From: an uncultured Candidatus Saccharibacteria bacterium
GTDB taxonomy: Bacteria > Patescibacteriota > Saccharimonadia > Saccharimonadales > CAIOMD01
Direction of reading: 5' to 3'
DNA: 64,000 nucleotides
Assembly (NCBI GenBank): GCA_963716565.1
Contig: OY970318.1
Coordinates: 192,830-256,829 of the forward strand
Position numbers and translations under genes: made by a program
In this document: in pieces, positions 7,357-35,200 of the stretch
How the letters are laid out: each line of letters opens with the position of its first letter
How positions within the stretch are numbered: the first letter of the stretch is position 1
The notes under the pieces: generated by a model
What the model was told of the DNA's origin: nothing
The model's input: only the letters and a program-made list of their open reading frames with translations
Database searches by the model: none

Positions 7357-7440
7357 GCGCGAGTGGTGGAATGGTAGACACGCTAGCCTTAGGAGCTAGT
7401 GCCGCAAGGCGTGAAGGTTCAAGTCCTTTCTCGCGCACCA
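7357..7440 (+). tRNA. tRNA-Leu (anticodon TAG), CCA encoded
   Basis: The acceptor pairs gcgcgag/ctcgcgc. The anticodon arm is ctagc-cttagga-gctag. It has a long variable arm and the T-arm gaagg-ttcaagt-ccttt, and it ends in acca. Confidence 0.9.
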
Positions 7441-7448
7441 AACAAGAG

Positions 7449-7469
7449 CACCCATTTTGGGTGTTTTTG
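7449..7469 (+). terminator. Rho-independent terminator after tRNA-Leu
   Basis: The stem caccca/tgggtg is followed by a T5 run. Confidence 0.6.
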
Positions 7470-7493
7470 TTTGGTCTGTGTGGCAGACTTAAG

Positions 7494-7596
7494 CCTTCAC
7501 GGCGACAGCTTTAGCTGGCGCGGAGTGAAGGTGCATAGAGCGATTAGCGGCAATAGTCGGGCGCGTAGCCCCGACGCTGTCCTTTCTCGCGCACCA
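7494..7596 (+). other. tRNA-Leu 3'-end echo: T-stem and acceptor 3' strand plus CCA, with the T-loop replaced by a 47-nt conserved GC hairpin module
   Basis: gtgaaggt (7525-7532) equals tRNA positions 7411-7418. tcctttctcgcgcacca (7580-7596) equals 7424-7440. The insert at 7533-7579 shares about 37 of about 40 aligned nt with 57875-57920. ccttcac (7494-7500) is complementary to gtgaagg (7525-7531). Confidence 0.6.
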
Positions 7597-7604
7597 AAAT
7601 TATT

Positions 7605-7640
7605 TCTAACAACTAACATCCATCATCTAACATCTAATTT
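7605..7640 (+). repeat. Heptad-array element copy 2 (tctaaca actaaca tccatca tctaaca tctaatt)
   Basis: Five 7-nt units lie directly after the tRNA-Leu echo and just upstream of the tyrS extended -10 (TGTTATTCT, 7642-7650). Confidence 0.7.
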
Positions 7641-11422: not shown

Positions 11423-12709
11423 ATGCAAACTACTATTAAAGAATCTTCCGACACCACTGCCGTTTTAACCGTTACGGCTAACGCCGAAGATTTGGCTAAA
11501 TACAAATCATTAGTTGTTAAACGGTTGGCCAAAGATGTAAAAGTGCCCGGTTTTAGGACTGGCAAAGTACCCCAAGCCGTAGCCGAAAAGAACTTAGACC
11601 CTAACTATGTGCAAAGCCAAGTAATAGAAGAGGCTATAAACCGCCTGTATTTGAATGCTCTTAATGAGACTAAATTAAGAGTTATCTCGAACCCTAAAAT
11701 TGCCGTTACTAAGTTTGTGCCTTATACCGATTTAGTCTTTACGGCCGAAGTCGATGTAGTACCTAAAATTAAATTGCCCGATTACAAGAATATTAAGGTT
11801 AAAAAAGAAGAAGTTGCTATTACCGACGCCGATGTAGAAGAAGTTTTAGGCCGGATTCAGCAGCAACAGGCTACATTTACCGAAGTTACCCGGGCCGCCA
11901 GAGATGGCGACAGGGCCATAATTGATTTTGCTGGCAAAGATGCCAAGGGCGAGCCAATTCCTAACGGTTCAGGCAAGGATTACCCTCTAGTTTTAGGCAG
12001 TAAAAGCTTTATTGCCGGTTTTGAAGAGCAAGTTGTTGGCCTTAAAAAAGGCGCCAAGAAGAGATTTACGTTGAGTTTTCCTAAAGATTATTTTGCCCAA
12101 GTTCTAGCCGGCCAAAAAGTAACTTTTGATATAGAAGTAAAAAAGATTGAAGAATCTAAGGCAGAAGAATTAAATGATGCTCTTGCGGCCAAAATTGGCC
12201 CATTCAAAACTGTTGGTGACTTAAGGGCCGATATCAGAAAACAGCTAAACATTGAGCGCGAGCATCATGCCAACCGCGCCTTTGAAGAAGCCGTTATTAA
12301 GGCCATCGCCGACAAAGTAAAAATTGCTTTGCCCGAAGGCTTGCTAGCCGAACAGACCAAAATGATAGATCAAGAATTCCGCCAGAACCTATCCCGCCAA
12401 AACCAAACCTTTGAAGATTACTTAAAGAGTACTGGCAAAACCGAAGACGAATATAAAGAGCAAGAATTAAAGCCACTGGCCCAAGAGCGCCTTAAAGCTG
12501 GTTTAGTACTGGCCGAAATCGCTAAAGCCGAAGATATCACAGTCACGCCCGAAGAACTGCAAATAAGGGTACAGCTTATAAAGAATCAGTATAAAGACGA
12601 GAAGGTTCACGAAGAATTAGACAAGCCCGAGAACCAGCAAGATATTGCCAGTCGCATGGTTACCGAAAAAACCATCACCAAATTAGTAGGTTACGCCCAA
12701 GGAAAATAG
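11423..12709 (+). CDS. tig: Trigger factor
   Basis: 428 aa. It has an N-terminal ribosome-binding region (PGFRTGKVP), a central FKBP-type PPIase segment and a helical C-terminal arm. Confidence 0.92.
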   Translation: MQTTIKESSDTTAVLTVTANAEDLAKYKSLVVKRLAKDVKVPGFRTGKVPQAVAEKNLDPNYVQSQVIEEAINRLYLNALNETKLRVISNPKIAVTKFVPYTDLVFTAEVDVVPKIKLPDYKNIKVKKEEVAITDADVEEVLGRIQQQQATFTEVTRAARDGDRAIIDFAGKDAKGEPIPNGSGKDYPLVLGSKSFIAGFEEQVVGLKKGAKKRFTLSFPKDYFAQVLAGQKVTFDIEVKKIEESKAEELNDALAAKIGPFKTVGDLRADIRKQLNIEREHHANRAFEEAVIKAIADKVKIALPEGLLAEQTKMIDQEFRQNLSRQNQTFEDYLKSTGKTEDEYKEQELKPLAQERLKAGLVLAEIAKAEDITVTPEELQIRVQLIKNQYKDEKVHEELDKPENQQDIASRMVTEKTITKLVGYAQGK

Positions 12710-13858: not shown

Positions 13859-14338
13859 TCAGCTGGCCAAGAATGGACAGCTTTGCCGATCACCGATGAT
13901 AGATGCCGACAGCAGCTCACAATGGCCGTCGTCGTACACCTCAACGACTATTGCCTCCACGATGGTGATGCTGCTTGTGGTGAGGTCCTCCAGCTCGACG
14001 CCGATGTAGACGATGCGCGCCCACAAGTCGGAAACGTAGGCCCTAAGGTCTCGAGCTGCGGCCGAAGCGTTATTGTACGCTCGCTTGGCAATCTGACGCT
14101 GGAAGGTGCAGGATCTGCACAGTCCGTGGTCGGCTTTGCCCATGTTGGAACACCTTGCGGTGATCTCGCGGTACTCGATCTCGGCGTTGCGCGCCAGGCT
14201 CTGTTTCTGCGCCCAGTTCATCAGCAGGGCAAAGCCCTTCCTTGTGCAAAAGACGCGATCGAACAACGACCCAATCAGCCGTGCTCTCTCGAACCGAAGT
14301 GCAGCCGCAGACCTATCTGAATGGTTGGCTTGGAACAT
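13859..14338 (-). CDS. Hypothetical protein (high GC), flanked by a 15-bp inverted repeat
   Basis: I trimmed track ORF 13859..14392 to the ATG at 14338, which is preceded by GGGAGAG. A long leader carries a 15-nt IR hairpin. The product contains a C..(9)..C..C cluster (ARCSNMGKADHGLCRSC). No family was recognised. Confidence 0.5.
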   Translation of the reverse strand: MFQANHSDRSAAALRFERARLIGSLFDRVFCTRKGFALLMNWAQKQSLARNAEIEYREITARCSNMGKADHGLCRSCTFQRQIAKRAYNNASAAARDLRAYVSDLWARIVYIGVELEDLTTSSITIVEAIVVEVYDDGHCELLSASIIGDRQSCPFLAS

Positions 14339-14371
14339 GTGCTTGCTCTCCCTCTGGTAGTGTTTGTGGTT

Positions 14372-14422
14372 TCCCCTAAGGGAAGCTAACAACTTTAAAA
14401 GCGGTCAGCTTTCCTTAGGGGA
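14372..14422 (-). promoter_or_regulatory. Leader hairpin / candidate operator: 15-nt inverted repeat with 1 mismatch and a 21-nt spacer
   Basis: tcccctaagggaagc (14372-14386) pairs with gctttccttagggga (14408-14422). It lies about 35 nt upstream of the ATG at 14338 on the minus strand. Confidence 0.4.
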
Positions 14423-14440
14423 TCTAACAGGAAAGAACAA

Positions 14441-14455
14441 GGCACTTTCTATGGC
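14441..14455. repeat. Right copy of the perfect 15-bp inverted repeat (ggcactttctatggc)
   Basis: It is the exact reverse complement of 13772-13786. Confidence 0.7.
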
Positions 14456-14628
14456 TAGTTGTAAATACAAAGGGCCGGGTTTTGCCCCAGCACCTCCGCT
14501 ATCCTAAGGTAATTACTACCTCGAATTAGTGCTATATTAACATAATAATACAAATAAAGCAATTATAAAGTGCTCATGCTTGCAAAAATGGGTTTACATA
14601 AACATACTATCCACAATAAGGAGTTAAA

Positions 14629-14814
14629 ATGGCAGAAACTAGCGTATCCGGCCTACTAGCAAATCGGGAAAGCAAACTTACCATGGCAGCAGCCATACGT
14701 TTAGGTTGCGGAGCGTGTGAGGCTGTATCACCAAGTTGTAGGCCCAAACTTACCGAAACGGTAGTGCATGGCAATGTCATAAAGGAAAAGCGGCTGTTTC
14801 TAACGAGCAGGTAA
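14629..14814 (+). CDS. Small hypothetical protein with a GCGAC..SPSC motif (possibly the 5' part of a frameshifted gene)
   Basis: AAGGAG lies 6 nt before the ATG. A TTGCAA/CATACT promoter-like pair sits upstream (14580-14608). The next frame is open from 14742, so 14629-15167 may be one gene. Confidence 0.35.
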   Translation: MAETSVSGLLANRESKLTMAAAIRLGCGACEAVSPSCRPKLTETVVHGNVIKEKRLFLTSR

Positions 14815-14864
14815 TAGAAACTGCGGCCATAAACTGCGAACTAGTATACGAATTAGCCCAAGCG

Positions 14865-15167
14865 ATGCCATCTACGCCAGAGGAATTCAAAGCAATTACC
14901 GATAAGGTAATAATCAATATGCCTCCACCATCTACCGAGCGGGTTGATACTTCCATGAATATTGACCCAACTTTGTCGCCCCCCAAAAAAGACGAATGGC
15001 CTTGGAACTTCCAGCCAAAGAGTGCGCAAGAGTTAGAAGCAACAGAAAGTACCGTTGCCAGTGGATTAATTGACCTTACTAGGCCAGATATCGGACCAAG
15101 ACACCCTTGGGATCGAATGGCGGAGAGTGTTGCTCAGACCAAGAGAAGAGAAATAATCGCTGAGTAA
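14865..15167 (+). CDS. Hypothetical protein (its frame is open upstream to 14742; possibly the 3' part of 14629..)
   Basis: Track ORF of 100 aa. By my codon walk the same frame has no stop back to 14742 and reads plausibly (AAVSNEQVIETAAINCELVYELAQA). Confidence 0.35.
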   Translation: MPSTPEEFKAITDKVIINMPPPSTERVDTSMNIDPTLSPPKKDEWPWNFQPKSAQELEATESTVASGLIDLTRPDIGPRHPWDRMAESVAQTKRREIIAE

Positions 15168-15299
15168 TCCAGCAAAATCATAATATTGCCGTTAAGGCAC
15201 AAAAGTGGTAAGGTAGCGACAACATACAAAACCCTAAGCTACACGCTAAGGGTTAGGTAATGTGACTGTTCTTTCACTCATATACGCAGGGGGTGTCGG

Positions 15300-15731
15300 T
15301 TGAACGAGCACAAGCAGGCTAAGACGATTCAAGAAGGAGCGTGGCTTGCCGCTGAAGCATGGCGCCAAAAGATCGAGCTACTGCAGGATCCCACGGTGGA
15401 TACCTACAATGAGTTCGTTCGGCGTTGTTCGCAAGTTGCCGGTGATCTGTGTGGGCTTTGCTATGCGGCAGCTCACATACTAAAGGTAGACCCACCGGGC
15501 AATCGCAAGCGGTGCAAGGTTTGTCCGCTACAGCCTAAATGGCACAAGGTTTGCTCGCTGTGGTTACAGAGGCACTATTGCCACCCGGCAGTAGAGAAGT
15601 TCGTTGGTATCTGCCAGGGTATACACAAAGCCAACCAAGGCGACGACCAAGTGCGGTGGGCTCTAGGCCGGCAAGAGCTGTTAAGGCATGCCATGCAAGC
15701 CAAGGCGGCTATCGAAGCCATCCTGCAGTAG
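15300..15731 (+). CDS. Cys-rich hypothetical protein (8 Cys)
   Basis: A TTG start is preceded by GGGGGTG. The 143-aa product carries C-x8-C-x2-C and C-x2-C clusters. The segment is high GC. Confidence 0.45.
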   Translation: MNEHKQAKTIQEGAWLAAEAWRQKIELLQDPTVDTYNEFVRRCSQVAGDLCGLCYAAAHILKVDPPGNRKRCKVCPLQPKWHKVCSLWLQRHYCHPAVEKFVGICQGIHKANQGDDQVRWALGRQELLRHAMQAKAAIEAILQ

Positions 15732-15890
15732 AGTAAAGAGCGTGCCTTCGCGTGAGGCGCCCAAGTTTGTTGTAAAACAGGGGCGCCCACTCGGAGGCGC
15801 TTCTGTTTTAAAGTGTAAAATACTTTATTTATCGTAGTTATTATGGTTTAGTGTTATTGCGTTGAAAATCCCTACCCGTTTGGAGGCAGT

Positions 15891-16319
15891 GTGGATTGCA
15901 AGGCGTTTGCAACCGAGGTGGTAAAGAGGAAGAAAGAGCTTGCGGGCTTGATGCGCGGGCACAGCAAGAACCAGGCGGCGATATGGCTTCAGGTTCGCAA
16001 GGTGCTCCAGGAGCTCGGCGAGGTATACCCAGAGGCCGTCCAGGCGGATTCGTATCGGCATATGGCCGAGCGAGGGTACTGGATGTTGCGCTTTGACACT
16101 CACGGTAACGAACAGCTGATGGTCGATCTGACCACTGGTGACATAGCCGTGATGGGTGCTCTCGAGAAAGACTGGCCAGACTTCATCATCGGGCTGGGCC
16201 CAGACGACCTCAATGCCGGCAAGGAGCTGGAAATCCAGCGGAAGTTGCTTGCCGACTATAAGGGTTGTGCGGCCACCAAGCCCAAGGGCGACGGCCGCCG
16301 GCTTACTACGGCGAGGTAA
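15891..16319 (+). CDS. Hypothetical protein
   Basis: A GTG start lies 4 nt after GGAGG (15882-15886). The double-hairpin terminator at 16352-16414 follows in the same orientation. The antisense ORF 15825..16331 lacks an SD. Confidence 0.5.
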   Translation: MDCKAFATEVVKRKKELAGLMRGHSKNQAAIWLQVRKVLQELGEVYPEAVQADSYRHMAERGYWMLRFDTHGNEQLMVDLTTGDIAVMGALEKDWPDFIIGLGPDDLNAGKELEIQRKLLADYKGCAATKPKGDGRRLTTAR

Positions 16320-16351
16320 GGCTCGCAACACTGGTGCAGACGCTTCAACGT

Positions 16352-16414
16352 GGGGGGCGGGGCTTTAATAGCCCGCCCCCATAGCAGCAGACCCCTAACG
16401 GGTCTTTTTCTTTT
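16352..16414 (+). terminator. Double-hairpin terminator T1 (conserved GC hairpin plus a U-tailed hairpin)
   Basis: The sequence ggggcggggctttaatagcccgcccc is followed by gaccc-ctaac-gggtc-ttttt. The 26-nt first hairpin differs at 1 nt from the one at 18155-18180. Confidence 0.65.
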
Positions 16415-16491
16415 ATAAGCCTTTATTAAATACTACAAATATGTTATTATATGGCCTCCTACGAGAGACTAAACACCCTTGGAGGTGCACC

Positions 16492-17541
16492 TTGCTACCT
16501 ATAAAACTACCTGTAGAAGTCATTATATTGCCTACCGTTCAATGCCATCGTGGCTGTGCTTTCTGCGGAATGGATTCAACCTGTAAAGGTATCCACATGC
16601 GAAAGACATGGATTCCGATGGTCATCGAACAGATCGTCGAGCTCGGCGATGTTTGTAAGAGTGTCTTTGTATCTGGACTCGGGGAGCCACTAGAATATCC
16701 GTGGCTACTTGAACTGATGCAGGGGCTCCTACAAACACAAGCCGGCAACATCTCGTTTATGACGTCCGGCTGTAAGAACCAGAAGGAGATAGGCTACGAC
16801 AACCTTGTCGCCCTGTCACAGCTTCGCGATCCCAGGGTTAACCCCACAATCAGCATTAGCAACGTTCACCCGTGGGTATCCATACAGAGGATGCGCTTTA
16901 GCGTACCGTTCCTTGAGCAGATATCCACGCAGATCAACGTCAAGCTGATCGACGGGAAATACCCAAGGAAGCCAACAAGGCTAGCAATCGCTGCTTTGCT
17001 GTACTGGTCGCTATGCAAGCTGGGCTATAGCGAATACTTGCCGAAAGAAGAGATGGCTAAGTTGCCCGAAGAGCACCAAAAGCGACTGAAGTCGGAGATG
17101 CAAAGGCAAGGCCTCTTGCTCAAGAACGCCAGGATCGAGGCCGACGAAGACGGATTCGCAATCTATCCTAGCCACCTGATGACTTACATGGTCAGGAGCA
17201 TGATCAGGGTTGGAAGGGCCATAGACTATTTGGACCTTCCTCGAGAAGGCGGGACGTTTGGTAAGAATCCGATTTGTTCTGTTTTTGATGGAAGCTGTGA
17301 GCATCGCTTGCTGTACATCCATGCGGACGGCCGGATCTTCCCCTGCGACTGCGTAGGCTGGGACGACAAGATGTCCCTAGGCCACATCAGTGACATATCT
17401 CTTAAGGAAGCACTCGAACTTCGAGAGCCTCTTTTAGAGAAGGCCTTCGGCAACTACATCGCTAGCCCTGCGATTCTGCCCGACAGATTCAGGTGTACTC
17501 GGTGCTGTACGCAGTGGCCCGAGAAGCAGTACAACATATGA
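16492..17541 (+). CDS. Radical SAM enzyme with a SPASM/twitch-type C-terminal Cys domain (peptide/protein-modifying maturase family)
   Basis: I trimmed the ORF to TTG 16492, which lies 6 nt after GGAGG. It has CHRGCAFC (CxxxCxxC) near the N-terminus, a GLGEPL (GGEP-like) motif and a C-terminal C-x10-G-x4-C (CEHRLLYIHADGRIFPC) followed by CTRCC. Confidence 0.75.
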   Translation: MLPIKLPVEVIILPTVQCHRGCAFCGMDSTCKGIHMRKTWIPMVIEQIVELGDVCKSVFVSGLGEPLEYPWLLELMQGLLQTQAGNISFMTSGCKNQKEIGYDNLVALSQLRDPRVNPTISISNVHPWVSIQRMRFSVPFLEQISTQINVKLIDGKYPRKPTRLAIAALLYWSLCKLGYSEYLPKEEMAKLPEEHQKRLKSEMQRQGLLLKNARIEADEDGFAIYPSHLMTYMVRSMIRVGRAIDYLDLPREGGTFGKNPICSVFDGSCEHRLLYIHADGRIFPCDCVGWDDKMSLGHISDISLKEALELREPLLEKAFGNYIASPAILPDRFRCTRCCTQWPEKQYNI

Positions 17542-17626
17542 AGCAAGGTGCTTACGGCCCCCGAAAGCTCGAAAGAGCTCGACGGGGCCGTTTGCCATTT
17601 TATGGGTAAATTTATTGGGCACAGAA

Positions 17627-17654
17627 TTGAATAAAGCGGATATTCTGTTATAAT
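17627..17654 (+). promoter_or_regulatory. Near-consensus sigma70-type promoter with extended -10
   Basis: TTGAAT (17627-17632), a 16-nt spacer ending in TGT, and TATAAT (17649-17654). It lies 37 nt upstream of the ATG at 17691. Confidence 0.5.
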
Positions 17655-17690
17655 ATGCGTAATCTGACAAGATCGAACGCGGAGGTTGTT

Positions 17691-18128
17691 ATGTTCTGGG
17701 GTTGGCGTAAGGTACAAGACCTTGAAGGGCTTGTGCGAGCGGCAAAGAAGAAGGGCGTAACTCTCATCACGGTGCAGGCTGGCTTGGAGTCGCCGGGAGG
17801 GGACGATAACCCCGCAGATCCGTGTGAGGTTCCAGGCGAGTATCGCATCTTCTTGGTGTACTCTCTTGGGTACAAGAAGAGGTGGAAGTTGTACAACGAA
17901 CACATCTTCACCTTCTTCGTGGACGACGAGGCAAATTTCAGCTGCGATGAGTGCCAGCAGTGGAGCATCAAGGCCTTGATGACTGTTAAGGCGCGAGTAG
18001 ATGAGCTCAGCCGTCAGCTGCCGGGAGTCGACATCGAGTTCTGGTACGAGGATGAGCCGGTGACTCCAGAGCTAGTCAAAGAGATGTGCCTCGAGGCCGA
18101 ACGGCTTGAGGTGGTAGCCGACGCCTGA
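17691..18128 (+). CDS. Hypothetical protein
   Basis: I trimmed track ORF 17655..18128 to the ATG at 17691, which lies 6 nt after GGAGG. Terminator T2 follows. Two antisense track ORFs overlap it and are judged spurious. Confidence 0.5.
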   Translation: MFWGWRKVQDLEGLVRAAKKKGVTLITVQAGLESPGGDDNPADPCEVPGEYRIFLVYSLGYKKRWKLYNEHIFTFFVDDEANFSCDECQQWSIKALMTVKARVDELSRQLPGVDIEFWYEDEPVTPELVKEMCLEAERLEVVADA

Positions 18129-18151
18129 CGGCTAAGGATCTGTCAGATCAT

Positions 18152-18209
18152 GGAGGGGCGGGGCTTTAATAGCCTGCCCCTCCGACCGAAGACCTACAAG
18201 GTCTTTTTT
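18152..18209 (+). terminator. Double-hairpin terminator T2 (paralog of T1)
   Basis: The sequence ggaggggcggggctttaatagcctgcccctcc is followed by agacc-tacaa-ggtct-ttttt. Confidence 0.65.
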
Positions 18210-18241
18210 GTTTGTTCAAAGACAAGATGAATAAAAGCTTA

Positions 18242-18275
18242 TAAAAAATCCCGCTTATCGTAGTAGCTAGCGGGA
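18242..18275 (-). terminator. Rho-independent terminator for the minus-strand gene 18323..18697
   Basis: The stem tcccgc/gcggga is followed by a T-run on the minus strand (plus-strand A-run at 18243-18248). Confidence 0.55.
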
Positions 18276-18322
18276 ACGCCGGGTTTGCACCGGAGCGAGT
18301 AATCCTCGCTGGTTGGGGGGCT

Positions 18323-18697
18323 CTAGGCCGGCTGCGGCGGCAGCCATACGGCGTGCTTGCGCAAGCTGATGTCGAAGGCTATATCGCTGTCGTCGCCGCA
18401 GAGTCTGCGGATATGCCAGGCGAAGGCCTCAGACCACTGCTTGAACCGCTTCTTCCTCTTGCGGGTGTGGTGGCCGATCACAGTGATGACCATGTTGTTC
18501 GACAACGAGTCGAGCTTACCGGCCTTCTTGTAGGTCACGGTGACATGGTTGGGATCGAGCAACTCGCCACAGTGCTCTAGAAGCGCCGAATACAGCTGTT
18601 GCTGGATCTTTGGCGTGAGCCACGGGCTGCCGTCATCTGCGTACAGCATCCTTGTGTTCTCCGGGGTGTCCCTGTAAACCACAACGGCCTCGGGCAC
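18323..18697 (-). CDS. Hypothetical protein; speculative tautomerase-superfamily-like (Pro at position 2, two beta-alpha-beta-like halves)
   Basis: I trimmed track ORF 18323..18784 to the in-frame GTG at 18697, which lies 6 nt after GGGAGG. TGTTAAATT (extended -10-like) lies upstream on the minus strand. The fold guess rests only on sequence pattern. Confidence 0.45.
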   Translation of the reverse strand: MPEAVVVYRDTPENTRMLYADDGSPWLTPKIQQQLYSALLEHCGELLDPNHVTVTYKKAGKLDSLSNNMVITVIGHHTRKRKKRFKQWSEAFAWHIRRLCGDDSDIAFDISLRKHAVWLPPQPA

Positions 18698-18896
18698 GAA
18701 GCACCTCCCTGTATAGTCCTCGGCATAACCGAGGTTTTGCCGAAAAACAGAGCATAATTTAACATAAAAAAAGCTAATTAGCAAGACTAAGCAAAGCCAA
18801 TATCTGATGTTGTGTCCTATAAGTTGTAAACCCTTATGCTTGCATTAGCGGTCTTTTATTAGTATGAATATTACATTGCAATAAAAGGAGTATTAT

Positions 18897-19709
18897 ATGG
18901 TCAAGGAGCCCGGTGGACCAAAAAATCCATACGAAGATTACTTTGCCTCAAAAAAAGAGATTACTACTAAAGCTATCGCATCGGGCATAGAAATCCCATC
19001 TGTATATTTAGAGTCAGACGATCCAGACTATTTTCTGGAATTAGACAGTAGTATAGACGAGTTAATGGATGACGATCTCGAAAGGGACGAGGCCTGCGAA
19101 TGCTTAGGTATACCTATCGCAGATATAGATGCGATGGACCTGGTTGAAACTCTAATATTTATAGATGAGTTATGGAAGCTAGATAACAAAGCTAAAGCCA
19201 AAGACGAAATGGAGCTATTGTTCGGCGCTATTTTGCTTTCAGCTAATCTTACAAGTGACGAAAAACTTAAGAGGTTGGCGTTTGTTAACGATTTGCTTAA
19301 AAGCACTGCTGGAGAAATAGAAATTACTCAAGAAAAAGTAGACGAGTTATGTAAAAAGGCCGAGACATCCAAGACTAATAGGATGGCTTTGATGCGTACG
19401 CCTAAAGAGTTAGAACTTTATTTATATAATTCTTTTTCAGAACGTGAGGATGAAGTTGATGATGATGCTATTTGTGAATTAGTAGAAGTTGCTTTAGAAA
19501 TGGTACTAATAAGGATGGCTCAGCAAAAACGCAAAGAGACTACGGGTAGCGATTCTACCGACCCAGACGCTGAGGAACAATACAAGGCCTACCTACAAGA
19601 GGCACAAAAACTTGCCGACTGCATAGGTATGGCCAAACCAGAATTTGAGCATTTTCTTGAAACTGTAGCAAACACCCTGGACAACTACGGATACACAACA
19701 GTTCTTTAA
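18897..19709 (+). CDS. Acidic hypothetical protein
   Basis: AAGGAG lies 7 nt before the ATG. A TTGCAT-17-TATGAA promoter-like pair sits at 18840-18868. The 270-aa product is rich in D and E. No family was recognised. Confidence 0.55.
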   Translation: MVKEPGGPKNPYEDYFASKKEITTKAIASGIEIPSVYLESDDPDYFLELDSSIDELMDDDLERDEACECLGIPIADIDAMDLVETLIFIDELWKLDNKAKAKDEMELLFGAILLSANLTSDEKLKRLAFVNDLLKSTAGEIEITQEKVDELCKKAETSKTNRMALMRTPKELELYLYNSFSEREDEVDDDAICELVEVALEMVLIRMAQQKRKETTGSDSTDPDAEEQYKAYLQEAQKLADCIGMAKPEFEHFLETVANTLDNYGYTTVL

Positions 19710-19807
19710 GCTGTCAGATCGCTACTATTTGCAATTTGTTGTGTTTGGCATCGATTTTTGCCTGAAGACTTTTGTTTCTCTGTTATTCGGTGTAGAATCA
19801 AAAAATT

Positions 19808-20140
19808 ATGAAGGCGTTGAGTTTAAAGCAGCCGTATGCGAGTTTGATTGCCGAAGGCATCAAAACTATCGAAACGCGCAAATGGGCTACAAAATATCGC
19901 GGTGACATCTTAATTTGTGCCTCTAAAAGCGGGCAAGGCGAGCCCAAAGGCGTAGCTTTGTGTATTGTGGAGCTTTACGACATCCGCCCCATGACAAAAG
20001 CCGACGAAGCAGCCGCCTGCATAGAACTCTACCCCAACGCCAAAGCCTGGCTTATCCGCAATTTGCGTGTTCTGCCCAAACCCTTCCCCGTAAAAGGCCA
20101 CCTCAGTTTATTTGATATAGACCTCCCAGGGTGTTGCTAG
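19808..20140 (+). CDS. ASCH domain protein (PUA-like fold)
   Basis: The N-terminus MKALSLKQPYASLIAEGIKTIETRKW..YRGDILI matches the usual ASCH pattern (alS.kqPwa.lI..G.KtiE.R.w...yrG..li). Confidence 0.6.
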   Translation: MKALSLKQPYASLIAEGIKTIETRKWATKYRGDILICASKSGQGEPKGVALCIVELYDIRPMTKADEAAACIELYPNAKAWLIRNLRVLPKPFPVKGHLSLFDIDLPGCC

Positions 20141-20203
20141 CCTTAATTCACGCATAAAAGTGGTATTATATTAGTAGCGATAAATAAACAAAAAAGAATA
20201 GCA

Positions 20204-20554
20204 ATGGATAAAAAAACGCTAGCAGGTATCGACCCTAATAGGCTTGTAATACAAGGCGGAGTTTATCAGGGGTGCGTACTGGAGCGAAGCCTGTCGCAGA
20301 TAGGCGCCGGCGCTGTAAATGACGCTATTGATTGTAAGCGTAAAGACCCCAACAGTGACATTATTCCGGAACGTGAAGGCGAAATAGCCATGGAAAAAGA
20401 AGTAACCAGAAGGGCAGCCGAAGCTAGCAAAGCTCTTTGCGCTGAAGATAGGGCATTCACGGCAGCGGGTGCCGGCTTTGACTTTACCTTAAACCGAATG
20501 ACAAACGAAAGAAAAGGCATAGAACAACAAGAGCGCCCTGCTACACACAAGTAG
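20204..20554 (+). CDS. Hypothetical protein
   Basis: 116-aa ORF. TGGTATTAT (extended -10) lies upstream. No SD is present. Confidence 0.4.
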   Translation: MDKKTLAGIDPNRLVIQGGVYQGCVLERSLSQIGAGAVNDAIDCKRKDPNSDIIPEREGEIAMEKEVTRRAAEASKALCAEDRAFTAAGAGFDFTLNRMTNERKGIEQQERPATHK

Positions 20555-20644
20555 CATGTATGGCACATAAATTACGGTGTGAACTGCTTGTGCTTGCATT
20601 GCTAAAATGACGTAATTGTTATTAAGTATATTATAATCTCTGTT

Positions 20645-22027
20645 ATGTATGAGTGGCAGGATGGAATAACCAAAAAACTTAATCGGTTAGAGGCAGAGTA
20701 CGATGCTCAATTACTTAGAGAAGCCTTTGCTGAAAAAGAGCGACAGTTGCCCGATAGGCTGGCACAGATACAAAGGCAAAACTTTGAAGAATTAACGGCC
20801 GATGAGATAGCCGAAAGATTAGGTATGCCTACTGAGCAGGTAAAAACTACCACTAAAGCGCTTGGTGTGAGATTCATAATCAAAAAAGAAGGTCTAATGA
20901 CCTTTAGCGTTCTACCTGAGTTTACACTTGATTTGCTGATTGATGAACAAAGACGCATGGAGGGGGCGGACGGTGTAGACTGCGCAGAGTCTGTAGAAGA
21001 GCAGGTACCGCCGATAGTAACCGAGGTGCTGGTGCCAGACGATGAACCAGAATGGCAAGGAGTTTATGACTCACTAGAGGAACATATAACCATAGACAAA
21101 ATGTGGAAAGTTGTTGGCAAATCAAGGGGGTGGGTAGAAAGACGAATTGAAGCTTTGGGTATAACACCCGCTATACACCAAACCAGAACGGGGCATCCAG
21201 ATAACCCTTTGTATGCTAAAGAGGTGGCTTTATTTCTAAAAAGAGAAGCTGATGCTAATCCATTAGATAATGGTTGGGTAAATTTACGGCAGCTAGAACA
21301 GATTACTGGGCAAGACCGCGAGTGGATAGCAAATCGTTTACAAGAAGCAAATATCGTCCCAGAATCGAGATGCTCTAGCCTTAGTGGGCATACTTTAGAT
21401 TTTTATCCGCCAGAATCAGCAGAGCTTATTCAAAATGCTGCCGATGAACGACCAGAATTAGCTGCTGATTGGCTTACAGAAGAAGGATTAACAAATGGGC
21501 TGCAAAAATCACTAGCCTGGGTTCGCAACAGGCTCGCACAATACAAAGCTTTGGCCGAAGATAGGCGAGATGAACACGGTGTTACGCGCGTACACTATCC
21601 TCCGCATGTATTCGCCGAACTAGAACAAGTAAAAAATTTTGAACAATCACTTCCTGATGCCGGTGATTATTTAACTTTTTATAATTTAGTATCGGCTATT
21701 GGCAGGTCAGCCCTGTTAGTTGCTAACCGCATAGAAGAATTGGGCATAAAACATGAGTTAAGACGTGGTGGCAGAAACAGGATAACCCCACATTTCCCCC
21801 CAGAGAGCGTTGGTGATATTAAGGGTCTGATAGAAAAACAAGAGTCAAGCGATTTAATTACAACAACGCAGATAGCAGTTAAAACCAAAAAAACTATCGC
21901 CGATGTACGTCAAAGATTAAAAGAACTAGGCATAGAAGCGGTAGAAATAAAAAGAGCCGGCAACGGCTCGTTTAAAGAACACTACTCGCCAGATTGTATT
22001 GAGTTACTTCTTGCAGAAAAAGATTAG
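20645..22027 (+). CDS. Protein with six tandem excisionase/MerR-type (HTH_17-like) winged-helix repeats
   Basis: 460 aa. The repeats fall at aa 50-98, 148-198, 212-262, 277-326, 343-393 and 405-455, and each reads like [LIV]T...[LI]......s...[VI]..R[LI]..LGI........G.....[YF].P[EH]....L. TATAAT at 20632-20637 lies 8 nt before the ATG (leaderless-like). Confidence 0.65.
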   Translation: MYEWQDGITKKLNRLEAEYDAQLLREAFAEKERQLPDRLAQIQRQNFEELTADEIAERLGMPTEQVKTTTKALGVRFIIKKEGLMTFSVLPEFTLDLLIDEQRRMEGADGVDCAESVEEQVPPIVTEVLVPDDEPEWQGVYDSLEEHITIDKMWKVVGKSRGWVERRIEALGITPAIHQTRTGHPDNPLYAKEVALFLKREADANPLDNGWVNLRQLEQITGQDREWIANRLQEANIVPESRCSSLSGHTLDFYPPESAELIQNAADERPELAADWLTEEGLTNGLQKSLAWVRNRLAQYKALAEDRRDEHGVTRVHYPPHVFAELEQVKNFEQSLPDAGDYLTFYNLVSAIGRSALLVANRIEELGIKHELRRGGRNRITPHFPPESVGDIKGLIEKQESSDLITTTQIAVKTKKTIADVRQRLKELGIEAVEIKRAGNGSFKEHYSPDCIELLLAEKD

Positions 22028-23394: not shown

Positions 23395-26300
23395 ATGGCT
23401 CAAACTAAAGCTCCAGCAAAAGACAGCGTCACCACAAAAAAAGACAGGGTATATTTTACAAAAAGCGAAGGAATAGAGCTCCCCAACCTAGTAGACCACC
23501 AAAATAAGAGTTTTGGTTGGTTTGTTAATGAAGGGCTTGGTGAATTATTAGCCGAAATTAATCCAATAGATGATTACACCGGCACCAAACTAACCCTAAA
23601 TTTTAAGAATTATCATTTTGAAGAACCCAAAACTTCAGAAGCCGAAGCCCGTGAAAACAACATTAGCTACGAAGCCCCGCTAAAGGCCTTAGTAGAACTA
23701 ACCAACAAGGTAACCGGCGAAGTTAAGGAACAAGAAATTTACTTAGGCGACTACCCCTGGATGACCACTAGGGGCACTTTTGTAATTAATGGCGCCGAGC
23801 GCGTGGTAGTTAGCCAGTTAATCCGTAGCCCAGGCGTCTTTTTTAAAGCCACTCAACACGGTGGCACCAACCTGTATGGAGCCAAGGTTATTCCTAACCG
23901 AGGAGCTTGGTTAGAATTCGAAACCGCTGCTAATGGAGCCATGTATGTAAAAATAGACCGACGTCGTAAAATCCCAATCACCACCTTGCTAAAAGCTTTG
24001 GGCATGGGCGAAACGTGCTATTAAAGAAGCTGTAAAGCATGTAGATAGCGGCAAACTAAATTACATCGATGCTACGTTAGAAAAAGATCCTTCTAAAGGT
24101 ACTGGCGAAGCTTTAATTGAAGTTTACCGCCGTTTGCGCCCAGGAGACTTAGCTACTGTAGATAACGCCCGTAGCTTGCTAGAAAACATGTTCTACAACT
24201 ACAAGCGTTTTGACTTTAGCCGAGTTGGCCGCTACAAAATGAACAAGCGCTTGGATATGGATATTCCAAATACTGCCGAAAACCGCGTATTGCGCCTAGA
24301 AGACCTTATTGCCATCGTAGCCGAAATTATTCGTTTGAATAACACCCAAGAACCCGATGACGACATCGATAGCCTAGCTAACCGCCGCGTTAAATTGGTA
24401 GGCGAATTAGTACAAAGGCAGTTCCGTATTGGTTTATTGCGTATGGAACGCAACGCCAAAGATCGCATGAGCATGTGCGAAATCGAAACCGTTACACCTG
24501 GCCAGCTTATTAATGCTCGCCCAGTTGTAGCTGCTGTTCGTGAATTCTTTGCCTCGTCTCAGCTAAGCCAGTTTATGGACCAAATTAACCCGCTAAGCGA
24601 ATTAGCTCACAAGCGTCGCTTAAGTTCTATGGGCCCTGGTGGCTTAAGCCGCGAACGGGCTGGTTTTGAAGTACGTGACGCTCACGCTACTCACTATGGC
24701 CGTATTTGCGTGGTAGAAACTCCCGAAGGTGCCAACATTGGTTTGGTACTTAACATGGCTAGTTTTGCCCGTATTAACGAATACGGTTTTATTGAAACTC
24801 CATATAAAAGGGTTATTAATGCCTTGCCAGCCAAGAAGGCTGTTGGCCACATTGCCGGTGTTGATTTAGAAGATGCCAAGGGTAAGACAATTGTTAAAAA
24901 GGGTCAAAAAATTACTGCTGAGCAGGCTAAAAAGCTAGAGGCCATAAAAGAAAAAGCTACTTGGCCAGTTAAGTCCCAAGTTACTAGCGAAATTGTTTAT
25001 TTAGACGCTAGCGAAGAAGAAAAAGCAGTTATTGCCGGAGCCGGTAACGAAACCGACAAAGACGGCTTATTTTGTACATCCCAGAGTATCTGCTCGTAGC
25101 AATATGACTGCCGGTGAAGTTGACCCGCAAGAAGTCACTTATATTGATGCCGATACCAAACAAATTGTTGGTACCAGCGCTGCTTTAATTCCATTTGTAG
25201 AAAAGAACTATGTATACCGAAGTTTGATGGGTAGTAACCAGCAACGCCAGGCTGTACCTTTAATTAATCCAGAAGCTCCAATTGTTGGTTCTGGTGTAGA
25301 AGGTGTAGCTGCCCGCAACACCGGCCAGGTTGTTTTGGCCGAAGGTAAGGGTAAAGTTGTTAAAGCTACTGCCGAAGAAATTGTTGTTGATTACGGCAAG
25401 GTACGAAAAAACCTACAAGCCAATGCACTTTGTGCGCAGCAACGAAGGCTCTTCGATTAATCAAAAAGTGGCCGTTAACAGCGGTGATACTGTAAAAGAA
25501 GGCGACATTCTAATAGAAGGTATGAGCGTACAGGGCGGCGAATTGGCGCTAGGTAAAGACCTGCTAGTAGCCTTTATGCCTTGGTGCGGTTACAACTTTG
25601 AAGACGCTATTATTATTAGCAACCGCTTAGTGCGCGATGACGTGTTCACCAGCATCCACATTGTGGATTACATGACCGAAGTACGCGAAACCAAGTTAGG
25701 GCCAGAAATTGTTACCAGTGATATTCCAAACGTTTCCGAAGAAGCTCTAAGACACTTAGACGAAGATGGTATTGTACGAATCGGTGCCGAAGTTCACCCT
25801 GGCGACATCTTGGTTGGCAAGATTACTCCTAAGGGCGAGCAAGAATTAAGCAGTGAAGAACGCTTGCTACGTGCTATTTTTGGCGAAAAAGCCAAAGAAG
25901 TCCGTGACACTTCGCAGCGTATGAGCAACGGCAAACATGGCAAGGTTGTGGGCGTAAAGATATTTAGCCGCGCCACTGGCCATGAACTTAAGGCCGGCGT
26001 TATCATGCAAATCCAGGTGTTTGTTGCCCAAATGCGCAAGATTGATGTTGGTGATAAGCTAGGTGGTCGCCATGGTAACAAGGGTGTAATTGCCCGTATT
26101 TTGCCACTAGAAGACATGCCATATACCGAAGACGGTACTCCAGTAGATATTGTTTTGAACCCACTAGGTGTACCAAGTCGTATGAACATTGGCCAGTTGT
26201 TTGAAACTCACTTAGGTATGGCCGCTAAGGCATTAGGCTTTAGAGTTGCTAGCCCGCCATTCAATGGTGTGCCAATTGAGACTATCAAAGACTTACTTAA

Positions 26301-26922
26301 AAAAGCCGGCCTAAACGAAGATGGCAAGCAACAGTTGTTTGATGGCCGGACTGGTGCTCCATTTAAAGACCGTACCACTGTTGGCTGTATGTATATGATT
26401 AAGCTAAACCACATGATTGCCGATAAAATCCACGCTCGTTCTACTGGGCCATACACCATGGTTACTCAGCAGCCATTGGGCGGTAAAGCTCAAAACGGTG
26501 GCCAAAGATTCGGCGAAATGGAAGTTTGGGCATTAGAAGCTTACGGTGCTGCTAACACCTTGCAAGAAATGCTAACTATTAAGTCCGACGATGTTTATGG
26601 CCGTGCCAAAGCTTACGAAGCTATCATAAAAGACACCGAAATTGTTGGGCCAAAAGTACCAGAAAGCTTTAACGTACTTGTTAAAGAGCTACAAGGTTTG
26701 TGCCTAAAAGTTGACCTAGTTGACCTAAGCAAAGGCAAGGCAATTGATGCCGAAGCCTTGCTAGAAACTAACATTAAAGACGAAGCAGCTCACGAAGCTG
26801 AAGTAGAAGCTCCACAATCACCTATTAACGACCTAGATATGTCTAAAGAAATCGATAACGACGAATTCTTAATTATGGATGAATCGGGCGAAGAGATTAC
26901 CGTAACCGAAGAAGCTACCTGA
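23395..26922 (+). CDS. rpoB: DNA-directed RNA polymerase beta subunit, reading frame broken about 3 times
   Basis: Track fragments 23395-24024, 24134-25099, 25032-25460 and 25330-26922 read as consecutive RpoB sequence. Frame changes fall near 24010-24030, 25060-25100 and 25390-25440. Confidence 0.9.
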
Positions 26923-26954
26923 AGCAGACAATAACGAAACGGAGGAAGAATAAG

Positions 26955-30756
<3,802 letters not shown>

Positions 30757-31820: not shown

Positions 31821-33908
31821 ATGGCTAAAAAATATGCACTAAATCACATCAGAAACATCGGTACTATTGCCCATATTGATGCTGGTAAAACTACCGTAAC
31901 CGAAGGTATTTTGTATCGCACTGGTTTAAAGCACAAAATTGGCGCCGTTCACGAAGGTGAAACTACTACCGACTGGATGGAGCAAGAACGCGAACGTGGT
32001 ATTACCATTGTTTCGGCTGCTGTAACCTGTTTTTGGCGTGATCACCAAGTTAACATTATCGATACTCCCGGCCATATTGACTTTACTGTAGAAGTAGAGC
32101 GCAGCTTACGCGTTTTAGACGGTGCAGTTGTAGTTTTTGACGGCAAAATGGGTGTAGAAAGCCAGAGCGAAACCGTATGGCGCCAAGCCGACAAATACGG
32201 TGTTCCACGTATCTGTTTTATTAACAAAATCAACCAGACTGGTGGTGATTTTTATAAGAGCCTAGACAGTATTCATCATCGCTTAAATAAGCATGCTTTT
32301 CCGGTACATTTGCCAATTGGTTTTGAACAAAGTATTAATGGCCTAGTTGATTTAATTAGCCTAAAAGCCTACCAATATAACCGAATTTGACGATAAAGAA
32401 CTAAAAGAAATCCCCATTCCAGCCGACATGCAAGATAAGGTAAGCAAATATCGTTCGCTATTAATCGAAAACGCCGTAGCTGAAGACGAAACAGATTCTA
32501 GAAAAATACCTAGAAGTTGGCGAAGAAGGCTTAAGCGAAGAAGAAATCAGACAAGCTGTTCGTAGTGCCGTATTAACTGGTAAATTCTTTGCCGTTACTG
32601 GTGGTGATGGCCGTGGCGTTATTGTAGAAAAACTGCTAGACCTAGTTGTTGATTTACTACCCAGCCCAGCCGACAAGCCTAGTACTTGGGGTACTCATCC
32701 CAAAACTGGTGACGAAGTAGAACGCAAAAACACCGAAAACGAACCATTCACAGCCTTAGCTTTTAAGATTGCCACCGACCAATTTGTAGGTAAATTAGCA
32801 TACTTTAGAACTTATGCCGGTAAAGTTATCGCTGGCTCATATATTTTGAATAGCTCTACCGGTGAAAAAGAAAGAGTTGGCCGTATTGTTAGAATGCACG
32901 CCGACAAGCGTGAAGATGTTGACGAAGTATCGGCTGGTGATATTGCCGCTATTGTTGGCCTAAAAGGTACAACTACTGGTAATACCTTATGTGATGCGGC
33001 TCATCCAATCGTGCTAGAAAGCATTACCTTCCCAGAGCCTCCAGTTAGCATTGCTATAGAACCGGCTACCAAAGCCGACCAAGAAAAGATGAGTTTAGCC
33101 TTGCAGCGCCTGGCCGAAGAAGACCCAACCTTTAGAATTAAGGTAGATCACGAAACTGGCCAGACCATTATTAGTGGTATGGGTGAACTTCACCTAGAAA
33201 TCATCGTAGACAGAATGAAGCGCGAGTTTAGCGTGGTAGCCAATGTTGGCGCACCACAGGTAGCGTACCGCGAAACTATCCGCAAGGATGGCATCGAAGT
33301 TCAAGGCAAATATATTCGCCAATCTGGTGGTCGCGGCCAGTACGGTGACGTATGGCTAAGATTGTTCCAGAACGAAGCTGGCAAAGGCTTTGAGTTTATT
33401 AACAGTATTAAGGGCGGCGTAATCCCTAGCGAATACATTCCAGCTGTTAAGGCGGGCGTTGAAGAATCTTTAACCAACGGTGTTATTGCCGGCTACCCAG
33501 TTGTAGACGTCAAAGTAGAGCTTTACTATGGCTCGTACCATGATGTTGACTCCAGCGAATTGGCCTTTAAGATCGCCGGATCGATGGCTATAGCCGAAGG
33601 TGTTAAAAAAGCCAATCCAGTACTGTTAGAACCAATCATGAAACTAGTTGTTGTAACTCCCGAAGAGTACATGGGTGACGTTATTGGCGACTTAAACTCC
33701 AAGCGTGGTCGCATAGAAAAGATGGAAGATTTAGCTAACGGTGTGAAAGAAATTACCGCTTTTGTACCACTTGGTGAAATGTTTGGCTATACCACAACTT
33801 TGCGTTCTAACACTAAAGGCCGTGCCAGCTTCTTCGATGGAACTAGACCACTATGCTGACGTTCCACGTAACGTGGCCGAAGCCATTATTGCCAAAAACG
33901 CTAAATAA
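31821..33908 (+). CDS. fusA: Elongation factor G, reading frame broken about 3 times
   Basis: The G domain ([18 protein letters not shown]-like NKIN) lies in 31821-32390. The gene continues in other frames from about 32390 and about 32500, then through track ORF 32846-33859. The true C-terminus (...[15 protein letters not shown]) ends at 33908. Confidence 0.9.
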
Positions 33909-34016
33909 CTCTTTACAAATTCAGTAATGATTAGCTTTACAAAATACAAGACAGATAATTTGCGCTTACACAAAGATGTTAATCGCGTTTAAATTAGAGT
34001 CTAATAAGGAGAACAC

Positions 34017-35200
34017 ATGGCAGACACATTTGATCGCAGCAAACCGCATATGAACGTTGGCACCATGGGTCACGTTGACCATGGCAAGACCAGCTTAACA
34101 TCGGCTATTACAATGGTATTAGCAAAGCGCATGCCGAGCGCTATTAACAAGCCTATCGCTTTTGACCAAATCGATAACGCCCCAGAAGAAAAAGCTCGTG
34201 GTATTACGATTGCTACCTCTCACCAAGAATACGAGAGCGAAAAGCGTCACTATGCTCATGTTGACATGCCAGGTCACGCCGACTATGTCAAAAACATGAT
34301 TACCGGTGCTGCTCAGATTGATGGTGCTATTTTGGTAGTTTCAGCTGCCGATGGCCCTATGCCTCAAACTCGTGAGCACGTTTTGTTAGCTCGCCAAGTT
34401 GGCGTACCAGCTATTTTGGTCTATTTGAACAAAATGGACTTAGCCGACCCAGAGCTAGTTGAACTAGTAGAAATGGACATTCGTGAACTTCTAGAAAAGC
34501 AAGGCTTTGACAAAGATGCTCCTATTATTAAAGGCAGTGCCACCAAAGCTATCGAAGGCGACAAAGAAGCCGAAGATTCCATTATGGAACTTGTTAAAGC
34601 TATGGACGATTACTTCCAGATCCAAAGCGCGAACTAGAAAAACCATTCAGAATGGCCATAGAAGACGTCTTTAGCATCAAAGGCCGTGGTACAGTTGCTA
34701 CTGGCCGTATCGACCAAGGTATTGTTAAAGTTAACGACGAAGTCGAAATCGTTGGCATCCGACCAACCAAAAAGACTGTTGTAACTGGCGTTGAAATGTT
34801 CAAGAAATCCTTGGATCAAGGCCAAGCTGGCGACAACGTTGGCGTATTACTACGCGGCGTAGAGCGAGACGACATTGAGCGCGGTCAAGTATTGTGCAAG
34901 CCAGGCAGTATTACGCCTCACACCGAATTCGACAGTGAAGTTTATATCTTGACTAAAGAAGAAGGCGGTCGCCACACACCATTCTTTAAGGGCTACAAAC
35001 CACAGTTCTACTTCCAGACCACTGACGTGACCGGTGAAGTTGAATTGCCAGCCGACAAAGAAATGGTTATGCCAGGCGATACAATCACCTTTAAGGTAAA
35101 ATTGTTAGCTCCGATTGCAATGGAACAAGGCACTCACTTTGCTATCCGCGAAGGCGGACGTACTGTTGGCGCCGGTGTTGTAACCAAAGTTATCAAATAG
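34017..35200 (+). CDS. tuf: Elongation factor Tu, one frame break
   Basis: 34017-34637 carries [13 protein letters not shown] and NKMD. 34652-35200 carries domains II and III. Adding one C to the CC at about 34616 restores [23 protein letters not shown]. Confidence 0.92.

Follow-up and report, generated by a model that had tools for sequence, protein, structure and literature searches.

Cassettes of sense and antisense tRNA 3′ copies with structured T-loop fillers beside tRNA genes of Saccharibacteria

Partial copies of tRNA genes are known from several systems, and those derived from integration events are common (PMC9897764). The partial tRNAs of integrative elements (attL/attR, at the T-loop) are marked by a direct repeat of the tRNA 3′ part from the T-loop to CCA, by variable presence, and by tandem arrays in which the distal copies are decayed. 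Established mechanisms also include template switching at inverted repeats and direct–inverted–direct copy-number structures (PMC8604942, PMC10766186), and tandem inversion duplications and duplication–inverted triplication–duplication (DUP-TRP/INV-DUP) structures comprise three copies, the middle one inverted, with one junction at a palindrome. Repetitive extragenic palindromes (REP) and bacterial interspersed mosaic elements (BIME), Correia elements, Rickettsia palindromic elements (RPE), and elements like miniature inverted-repeat transposable elements (MITE) are short imperfect palindromes with conserved flanks, which lie in intergenic DNA after genes, are nested or mosaic, and are homogenised within a genome. 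The tRNA-like domain of transfer-messenger RNA (tmRNA), the YrlA/Y RNA module, and the stable species 1 and 2 RNAs of the phage T4 tRNA cluster have acceptor/T-arm-like helices and CCA, beside tRNA genes; they keep a canonical T-loop and are encoded by conserved genes. Finally, tRNA introns, including those that encode small RNAs in archaea, are structured inserts inside tRNA sequence. Here, we describe cassettes that resemble each of these systems in part. They were found in a 64,000-nt stretch of an uncultured Candidatus Saccharibacteria genome (contig OY970318.1; hereafter the window, to whose positions coordinates without a locus label refer, while labels L001–L105 denote loci of related genomes), in which tRNA-Leu(TAG) and tRNA-Tyr(GTA) are each followed by an echo of their own 3′ part, with a hairpin module at the position of the T-loop. 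Neither ARAGORN nor the Rfam tRNA model recognised the echoes; only the four true tRNA genes of the window (n = 4, ARAGORN) were found.

Both cassettes are built from sense and antisense copies of the 3′ part of the local tRNA plus a filler at the T-loop, and they are inserted DNA that is absent from related genomes. They belong to a lineage-specific and previously undescribed set of T-loop cassettes in Saccharibacteria, in which the fillers form discrete families (A, B, C, and D) that recur at different tRNAs, keep their helices by compensatory change, and have sub-modules in common within a genome. At the Leu locus (Table 1), the order is the tRNA itself (direct), a hairpin, an inverted copy, a small hairpin, and a direct copy that is broken at the T-loop. 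The original prediction had placed an echo of the tRNA-Leu 3′ end on both sides of the filler, and this was borne out by repeats of 20/20 and 12/14 nt, the copy of the 3′ end starting 156 nt 3′ of its original (7579 vs. 7423). The segment 7468–7505 aligned over 35 nt with the reverse complement of 7400–7445, and 0/2000 shuffles scored as well; its T-arm part (7486–7501) is well kept and its acceptor part is decayed. The short ccttcac at 7494–7500, which had been noticed as complementary to the copied T-stem strand, is the end of this longer inverted copy, and a corresponding complementarity is present at the Tyr locus (ctacgaag/cttcgtag). The further pairing proposed between gcgcgg and the duplicated acceptor strand is possible in the window, but only partly kept in L085 and absent in other cassettes. 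On the best reading, the neighbouring tRNA has been partly duplicated and rearranged, and the echo is the non-functional product, with the second direct copy broken at the T-loop by a module that we call type A.

The same module had been reported in the echo of tRNA-Tyr, and the two copies are indeed identical at 37/41 nt; the module pattern occurs at only these two sites in the window, and gave 0 matches in 100 shuffles. The inverted copy at the Tyr locus is less distinct, as 46/2000 shuffles scored as well, and it is better kept in the orthologue L093. A third, decayed direct copy follows the Tyr echo; its TCCTACACC part was backed by shuffles (8/2000), and its ggttcgagatcc part was read by eye only.

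Table 1. Parts of the tRNA-Leu and tRNA-Tyr cassettes in the window
Feature	Position	Strand	Evidence or composition
tRNA-Leu(TAG), intact, source of the copied segments	7357–7440	+	ARAGORN; Rfam tRNA 59.5 bits
Trailing hairpin (intrinsic-terminator-like stem), 5′ arm begins at the tRNA ACCA	7437–7475	+	Inverted repeat, 18-nt arms
Antisense (inverted) copy of the tRNA-Leu 3′ part	7468–7505	+	Inverted repeat 16 nt, 88%
Spacer hairpin GCG-a-CAGC-ttta-GCTG-g-CGC, inside the ccttcac/gtgaagg stem	7502–7521	+	Predicted folds
Direct copy X: variable-arm end, T-stem 5′ strand, T-loop start	7522–7535	+	12/14 to 7408–7421
Type A module, 47 nt, at the T-loop position	7533–7579	+	Order: AGCGATTAGCG, AATAGT, 6-bp hairpin GTCGGG/CCCGAC, GCT
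Tail: T-loop position 59, T-stem 3′ strand, acceptor 3′ strand, CCA, two extra A	7579–7598	+	20/20 to 7423–7442
tRNA-Tyr(GTA), intact	57695–57780	+	ARAGORN; Rfam
Terminator hairpin 3′ of tRNA-Tyr, within the inserted DNA	57777–57817	+	Inverted repeat; absent in L094–L105
ctacgaag (complements the copied cttcgtag), then spacer hairpin ttgc-gaa-gcaa	57837–57859	+	Predicted folds
Direct copy: variable-arm end, T-stem 5′ strand, T-loop TTCG	57860–57874	+	15/15 to 57747–57761
Type A module, copy two	57875–57920	+	Alignment with the Leu module
tRNA-Tyr tail copy with CCA	57921–57938	+	57923–57938 = 57766–57781, 16/16
Terminator hairpin two, 3′ of the Tyr echo	57934–57976	+	Inverted repeat
Third direct copy of the Tyr T-arm and tail, decayed	57974–58002	+	ggttcgagatcc ... 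ttcctacacc

In the predicted folds, each unit has two domains: a long hairpin, in which the inverted copy pairs with X and which is capped by the small hairpin, and a second domain, in which the 5′ flank of the module pairs with the tail and so closes the module hairpin. For L067, pairing between the inverted copy and the tail is predicted. Three further ideas on these parts were considered. The spacer hairpin as a relic of the anticodon arm or the variable arm was not significant (945/2000 and 380/2000 shuffles, respectively), the module 5′ flank as an inverted tail copy was not significant for Leu and was marginal for Tyr, and an enrichment of the stable GCGAAGC mini-hairpin was dropped, the heptamer being common across the window.

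Five copies of the type A module are known (n = 5): window Leu, window Tyr, L085, L093, and L090. At the orthologous Leu site, L085 carries two echoes, first one of type B, complete with a perfect tail and terminator, and then one of type A, whose tail has lost 4 nt. At the orthologous Tyr site, L093 has a 35-nt extra hairpin nested in the module, a decayed tail, and no CCA. The predicted fold of the module, GTCGGG/CCCGAC with the flanking AGC/GCT pairing, had been proposed before, and the pairing survives in L093, where the stem reads GTAAGG/CCTTAC, that is, with two double changes. In the alignment of the five sequences, AATAGT, the 6-bp stem, and GCT are conserved, 95.6% of cells pair, two stem pairs are altered on both sides, and one pair is broken in one sequence; covariation rests here, as in the other filler families, on 4–5 sequences per family, so that its statistics are weak. 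Nearly all copies lie in a T-loop context. L090 is an orphan, located in a 13.9-kb contig without a tRNA; it was the sole further match in a scan of JGI metagenomes, and the exact module pattern had no match in the species-representative genome set. Recurrence in independent loci supports the claim of a defined module. A simple decayed tandem duplication with unrelated filler is therefore hardly credible. In its favour, L081 has a plain, short duplicate in which the T arm and tail of tRNA-Tyr recur without a filler and the loop is mutated, but the module is present beside two unrelated window tRNAs, at the orthologous sites of two relatives, and at an orphan locus, another filler occurs at three different tRNAs, and conservation exceeds that of the flanks; the recurrence of the module already refutes this explanation.

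The comparison of the window with L085 along the Leu cassette gave identities of 0.61 for the terminator, 0.62 for the inverted copy, 0.85 for the spacer hairpin, 0.82 for X, 0.89 for the module, 0.71 for the tail, 0.54 for the downstream intergenic DNA, and 0.76 for the tyrS coding DNA. One compensatory change was found in the spacer hairpin (caGc/gCtg to caAc/gTtg), and the T-stem pair formed by X and the tail was also compensated (gaagg/ccttt vs. ggagg/cctct), although the latter may just follow tRNA alleles, because the tRNA of L086, L088, and L004 has ggagg/cctct. The window Tyr module is 0.89 identical to the window Leu module and only 0.71 identical to its positional orthologue in L093, which points to exchange or homogenisation within the genome.

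The conservation of spacer, X, and module core above that of tyrS coding DNA speaks for an expressed RNA, and an expressed tRNA-like minihelix with an encoded CCA had been one of the two hypotheses of the original prediction. In its developed form, a small RNA scaffolded by tRNA sequence would be made by read-through from the tRNA promoter, with the tRNA-derived arms as closing helices and the module as the functional part; the module would be presented as an expanded T-loop, e.g., as a protein-binding hairpin, and some copies would have a CCA 3′ end. In support of that, compensatory changes occur in the type A hairpin, the spacer hairpin, the X/tail T-stem pair, and P1 and P2 of the type B filler described below. 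Moreover, wobble pairs are mostly G.U on the tRNA strand (P3 in all type B copies, the X′/X helix of L085, and the closing stem of L067), and the L067 and window Tyr units fold better than their shuffles (z = −3.9 and −4.2, in a range from −1.4 to −4.2). However, weak z-scores (−1.4 to −2.2) were obtained for the units of window Leu, L085, and L093, no sigma-70-like promoter was predicted 5′ of either window echo, and a terminator-like hairpin precedes both of them, a good terminator thus standing between tRNA and echo. The minihelix itself is not conserved, as the tail, with its acceptor strand and CCA, is decayed in L093-Tyr and L001 and partly in L085, and the orphan L090 has no tRNA at all. 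Furthermore, the cassettes are sporadic, being absent at the same tRNA in close relatives; no relevant Rfam 15 match was found in the window, L001, L002, L090, or L095, either at the gathering threshold or at E ≤ 10; and the covariation is thin. Unlike in the known tRNA-like small RNAs, the T-loop is replaced, the CCA is often decayed, and the occurrence is irregular. We consider such a small RNA a serious rival explanation, though less likely than not.

More specific RNA identities were rejected. The echo as a tyrS leader or T-box-like element was discarded, since tyrS has its own extended −10-like sequence just 5′ of ATG, TGTGTTATTCT (read by eye; the promoter scan did not report it), and since what comes after the Tyr echo is a terminator and then a tRNA. 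Relationships to tmRNA, signal recognition particle RNA, and RNase P RNA, suggested by eye from the AAUAGUC and GGCCGGAAGC strings, were abandoned, none of these families having been returned by the Rfam scans of these regions.

Related cassettes in other Saccharibacteria accompany tRNA-Leu(TAG), tRNA-Leu(CAG), tRNA-Tyr, tRNA-Thr, and tRNA-Trp, and contain at least four filler types. All fillers fall between T-loop positions 54–57 and 57–60; in the sequences read, no filler showed a target duplication at the T-loop junctions, about one base being lost instead. The type B filler, of ~100 nt, consists of TGAGAA, P1, TTCGCAAGG, P2, GGGG, and P3 (GGTCG...CGTGACC). Its five known copies (n = 5) are distributed over three different tRNAs and four independent loci: they follow tRNA-Leu(TAG) in L001 and in L002/L003, follow tRNA-Leu(CAG) in L067, whose genome has a tyrosyl-tRNA synthetase (TyrRS) 49% identical to that of the window, form the proximal echo of L085, and, in L095, lie inside an otherwise full-length copy of tRNA-Trp directly 5′ of the intact gene. 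Compensatory changes occur at two positions of P1, the closing stem of P2 is wholly different among copies, and P3 varies in length with its G.U pair kept, while the joiners are near-identical between genomes with TyrRS identity of ~50%, a further point for a functional RNA. A covariance model of type B found no new copies in 0.82 Mb of Saccharibacteria sequence. The interrupted tRNA-Trp copy of L095 keeps the D arm and a compensated anticodon stem, and matches the Rfam tRNA model partially (25.9 bits). It resembles an intron-bearing tRNA, but the insert is in the T-loop rather than in the anticodon loop or at a bulge-helix-bulge, the interrupted copies lack intact acceptor ends, an intact gene always stands beside them, and no splicing signal was recognised.

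In L093, a cassette at tRNA-Thr(TGT) combines a filler of 55 nt with a tail that is exact over 20 nt and a second copy of the trailing hairpin, and the filler of a further cassette at tRNA-Trp has a 23-nt hairpin in common with the Tyr filler of the same genome. This Thr cassette and the Trp cassettes in L093 and L095 rule out a restriction to tRNAs with a long variable arm (Leu and Tyr). The direct–inverted–direct layout recurs in L001, L002, L067, L093, and L095, and arrays of echoes with decayed distal copies were found in L085 (type B, then type A), in L002 (two tails), and at window Tyr (the third copy). In L067 and L093-Thr, the direct repeat continues into the trailing hairpin and is 59 and 43 nt long, respectively.

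That the cassettes are insertions is seen from sites that lack them. In L094–L105, tRNA-Thr(GGT) lies 0–1 nt 3′ of tRNA-Tyr, while in the window the same interval is 268 nt and holds the echo, a pair of terminators, and, for tRNA-Thr, a site that resembles a promoter. In L004, tRNA-Leu lies 55 nt 5′ of tyrS, and in L084, L088, and L035 the tRNA and hairpin are present and the echo is absent. A TyrRS-based scan of the species-representative set yielded 80 tyrS loci, among which tRNA-Leu before tyrS was kept only in L004; the same scan also led to L067 and L081, in which the cassettes are located at other places in the flanks.

Inserted DNA at a T-loop was the other hypothesis of the original prediction, namely an attR-type scar. 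In that case, an element with a T-loop-targeting integrase would have supplied a new tRNA 3′ end and displaced the original one, the module would be the conserved element end beside attR, and the element body would have been lost or would be mobilised in trans. Part of this stood: the inserted DNA is tied to the T-loop at several tRNAs, empty sites occur in relatives, the arrays resemble accretion at an att site, and the direct repeat runs from the T-loop through CCA and, in L067 and L093-Thr, further into the trailing hairpin. Moreover, tRNA fragments from integration are common (PMC9897764). An element that encodes a large serine recombinase, an HTH_17 protein, and a faintly Phage_CRI-like protein was also observed beside tRNA-Trp in L096, L098, and L100–L102 (e.g., L098 759–4893), and is absent in L097 and L099, which shows that tRNA-adjacent integrative elements do occur in the group; those of L098 and L100 count in favour of an att origin. 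The remainder of the hypothesis fared poorly. No integrase, transposase, or reverse transcriptase was found among 44/54 window open reading frames (ORFs) of ≥150 aa or beside any cassette. In every case, only 85–210 nt separate the repeats, with neither an element body nor a recombinase ORF. In every cassette, the module (45–150 nt) parts X from the tail. The copied T-stem strand is thereby cut off from the block of identity, an arrangement not produced by an att crossover, which also fails to predict the antisense tRNA copy and the duplicated trailing hairpin. No core-type inverted repeat was seen at the junctions in the sequences read, and the L095 module sits in a complete tRNA copy 5′ of the intact gene. 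The first window terminator looks native rather than supplied by an element, because it is like the tRNA-Leu trailing hairpins of the echo-free relatives L084 and L088. Finally, scans of viral contigs with the patterns and BLAST searches for a phage or plasmid origin gave nothing, or chance matches in coding DNA. Taken together, these results make a classical att scar improbable.

The arms of the cassettes always match the local tRNA, and a hairpin followed by a 17–20-nt exact match to a tRNA 3′ end, with tail boundaries at T-loop positions 57–59, looks as if the unit was a guide RNA with the module as its scaffold, like a CRISPR RNA (crRNA), omega RNA, or bridge RNA, or a cDNA made by a reverse transcriptase that stopped near position 58. 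We regard an RNA-guided or retro-mobile system as very improbable. No effector, transposase, or reverse transcriptase gene was found near any copy, so that the scaffolds common to copies (type A and type B) have no linked protein; both arms are sense copies; and the type B cores at different tRNAs contain no target-specific segments. On these grounds, a homing crRNA of a CRISPR-associated transposon (CAST), the omega RNA of TnpB/IscB, and the IS110 bridge RNA were each rejected. As for the retro variant, the source was not mature tRNA, because the identity runs past CCA into the trailer in L067 and L093.

We tentatively favour, while holding it to be somewhat less than probable, a spare, rearranged copy of the tRNA 3′ part that hosts a small hairpin module, mobile or spread by gene conversion, and not a classical attR scar. 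The direct–inverted–direct layout would have arisen from fold-back or template-switch replication at the tRNA 3′ end, which is rich in hairpins (the T arm and the trailing hairpin), as in tandem inversion duplications. The layout agrees with such duplications in having three copies, the middle one inverted, and a first junction at a palindrome, the trailing hairpin. It differs from DUP-TRP/INV-DUP structures in its scale, which is tens of bases rather than kilobases, and in that one copy always has a T-loop filler. The modules would be small, non-autonomous hairpin elements, carried by insertion or gene conversion from one T-loop-like site to another, and, the tRNA genes being single-copy, they would persist only in the spare copy. 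REP- and MITE-like elements resemble them, but very few copies of the modules are known, nearly all of them lie inside the T-loop of a tRNA copy, and they have no terminal inverted repeats, target duplications, or identified RAYT (REP-associated tyrosine transposase) or other transposase. Conservation above neutral would then reflect either ongoing homogenisation or a function that the folded transcript, or the folded DNA, has for the host, possibly in termination or insulation between the tRNA and the next gene.

Several observations weigh against this preferred reading. It calls for T-loop-specific insertion without an identified enzyme or mechanism. The five type A and five type B copies, with two type A copies in 64 kb, are far sparser than typical REP or MITE families. 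Orthologues conserved above coding DNA are unexpected for an inert selfish insertion, and a functional RNA fits them better. The perfect identity of X and tail in the window to the present tRNA over 15–20 nt is hard to explain by gene conversion, which would have had to cross a heterology of 47 nt. The template-switch origin is something we infer from the layout itself, and several steps would be needed, because the trailing hairpin of L093-Thr is itself absent from the empty sites. The readings at the level of DNA and of expressed RNA are, however, not mutually exclusive. The fillers of types A–D could be a new class of structured RNAs, or of RNA-coding mobile modules, specific to spare tRNA T-loops in Saccharibacteria, with the tRNA-derived sense and antisense arms as scaffold or homing arms; such a system would have no described bacterial counterpart, and we think it unlikely.

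Homologues of its TyrRS and GH57 proteins place the window in Saccharibacteria. The gene content of the window is that of a housekeeping region: rpoBC, fusA, tuf, the ribosomal protein operon, secY, and rpoA, together with tyrS, hisS, tig, and glycogen-type enzymes. Amid these genes, at 13859–22027, lie seven consecutive ORFs of 153–460 aa without a Pfam match at E ≤ 1e−8, which are lineage-specific hypotheticals. The rpoB, rpoC, fusA, tuf, and GH15 genes (23395–30527, 31821–35200, and 58444–60391) are each split into two to four adjacent ORFs and are single genes in relatives. The splits are most likely indel errors of a long-read assembly and not real pseudogenes; the assembly thus probably has indel errors, and single-base details of the echoes are uncertain. 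The echo as a feature is no artefact, because orthologous cassettes are present in independent assemblies (L085 and L093).

Several further features of these tRNA loci were observed. The tRNA trailer hairpins (7437–7475, 57777–57817, and 57934–57976, and those of L001, L002, L067, and L085) begin exactly at the discriminator and CCA (ACCAAA.../...TTTGGT), so that the encoded CCA end is sequestered in the stem. Immediately 3′ of the Leu echo, 7603–7640 contains a repeated G-free, C-rich motif, TTCTAACA.C.AACATC..CATCTAA.ATCTAAT, that was also found in L095 (720–755 and 6093–6131) and in L094 (103–138 and 5476–5514), where it follows tRNA-Trp and lies between convergent genes. A Rho-utilisation-like signal, or some other signal at 3′ ends, is a possible identity. 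The orientation of tRNA-Leu(TAG) relative to tyrS in L001, L086, and L088 differs from that in the window, L002, L004, and L084, which implies repeated inversion or re-insertion of this tRNA gene.

The spacer of ~110 nt between tRNA-Thr(TGT) and tRNA-Tyr (57588–57694) is kept across relatives (L094 6900–6995, L096 11715–11850, and L093 12540–12650, all on the minus strand). Its hairpins appear to covary (ttaggcat...atgcctaa; gactatcc-gtgag-ggagagtc vs. ctaccc-gtga-ggggtag), and the spacer, which has no match in Rfam, may represent a small RNA of the tRNA operon that has escaped annotation. In L094 (7050–7484) and L095 (7667–8101), both on the minus strand, a free-standing HNH gene shares sequence with the overlapping 5′ end of a tRNA-Thr(TGT) of a divergent allele, and in L093 a PD-(D/E)XK (PDDEXK_5) gene (12123–12503, minus strand) lies between the Thr cassette and tRNA-Tyr; these two genes are candidate homing nucleases acting at tRNA genes. 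Additionally, a 22-nt 5′ fragment of the window-type tRNA-Thr(GGT), GCCGACATAGCTCAGTGGTAGA, lies at 11618–11640 of L093 (minus strand), just 5′ of a complete tRNA-Thr(GGT) of a different allele, and is evidence for allele replacement at this gene.

Saccharibacteria have tiny genomes with single-copy tRNA genes, and DNA that recurs inside tRNA-derived sequence beside these genes is for that reason unexpected in them. The cassettes reshape tRNA operons, as in the window, where the Tyr–Thr dicistron is split and terminators and a promoter are brought in, and they can mislead tRNA annotation and the prediction of att sites. To our knowledge, almost no non-coding RNA has been characterised in this phylum; if the cassettes are expressed, they would represent small RNAs of a new family, framed by tRNA sequence. 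Should the modules be mobile, they would display a new T-loop-specific insertion behaviour without a linked recombinase, which would point to an enzyme acting in trans.

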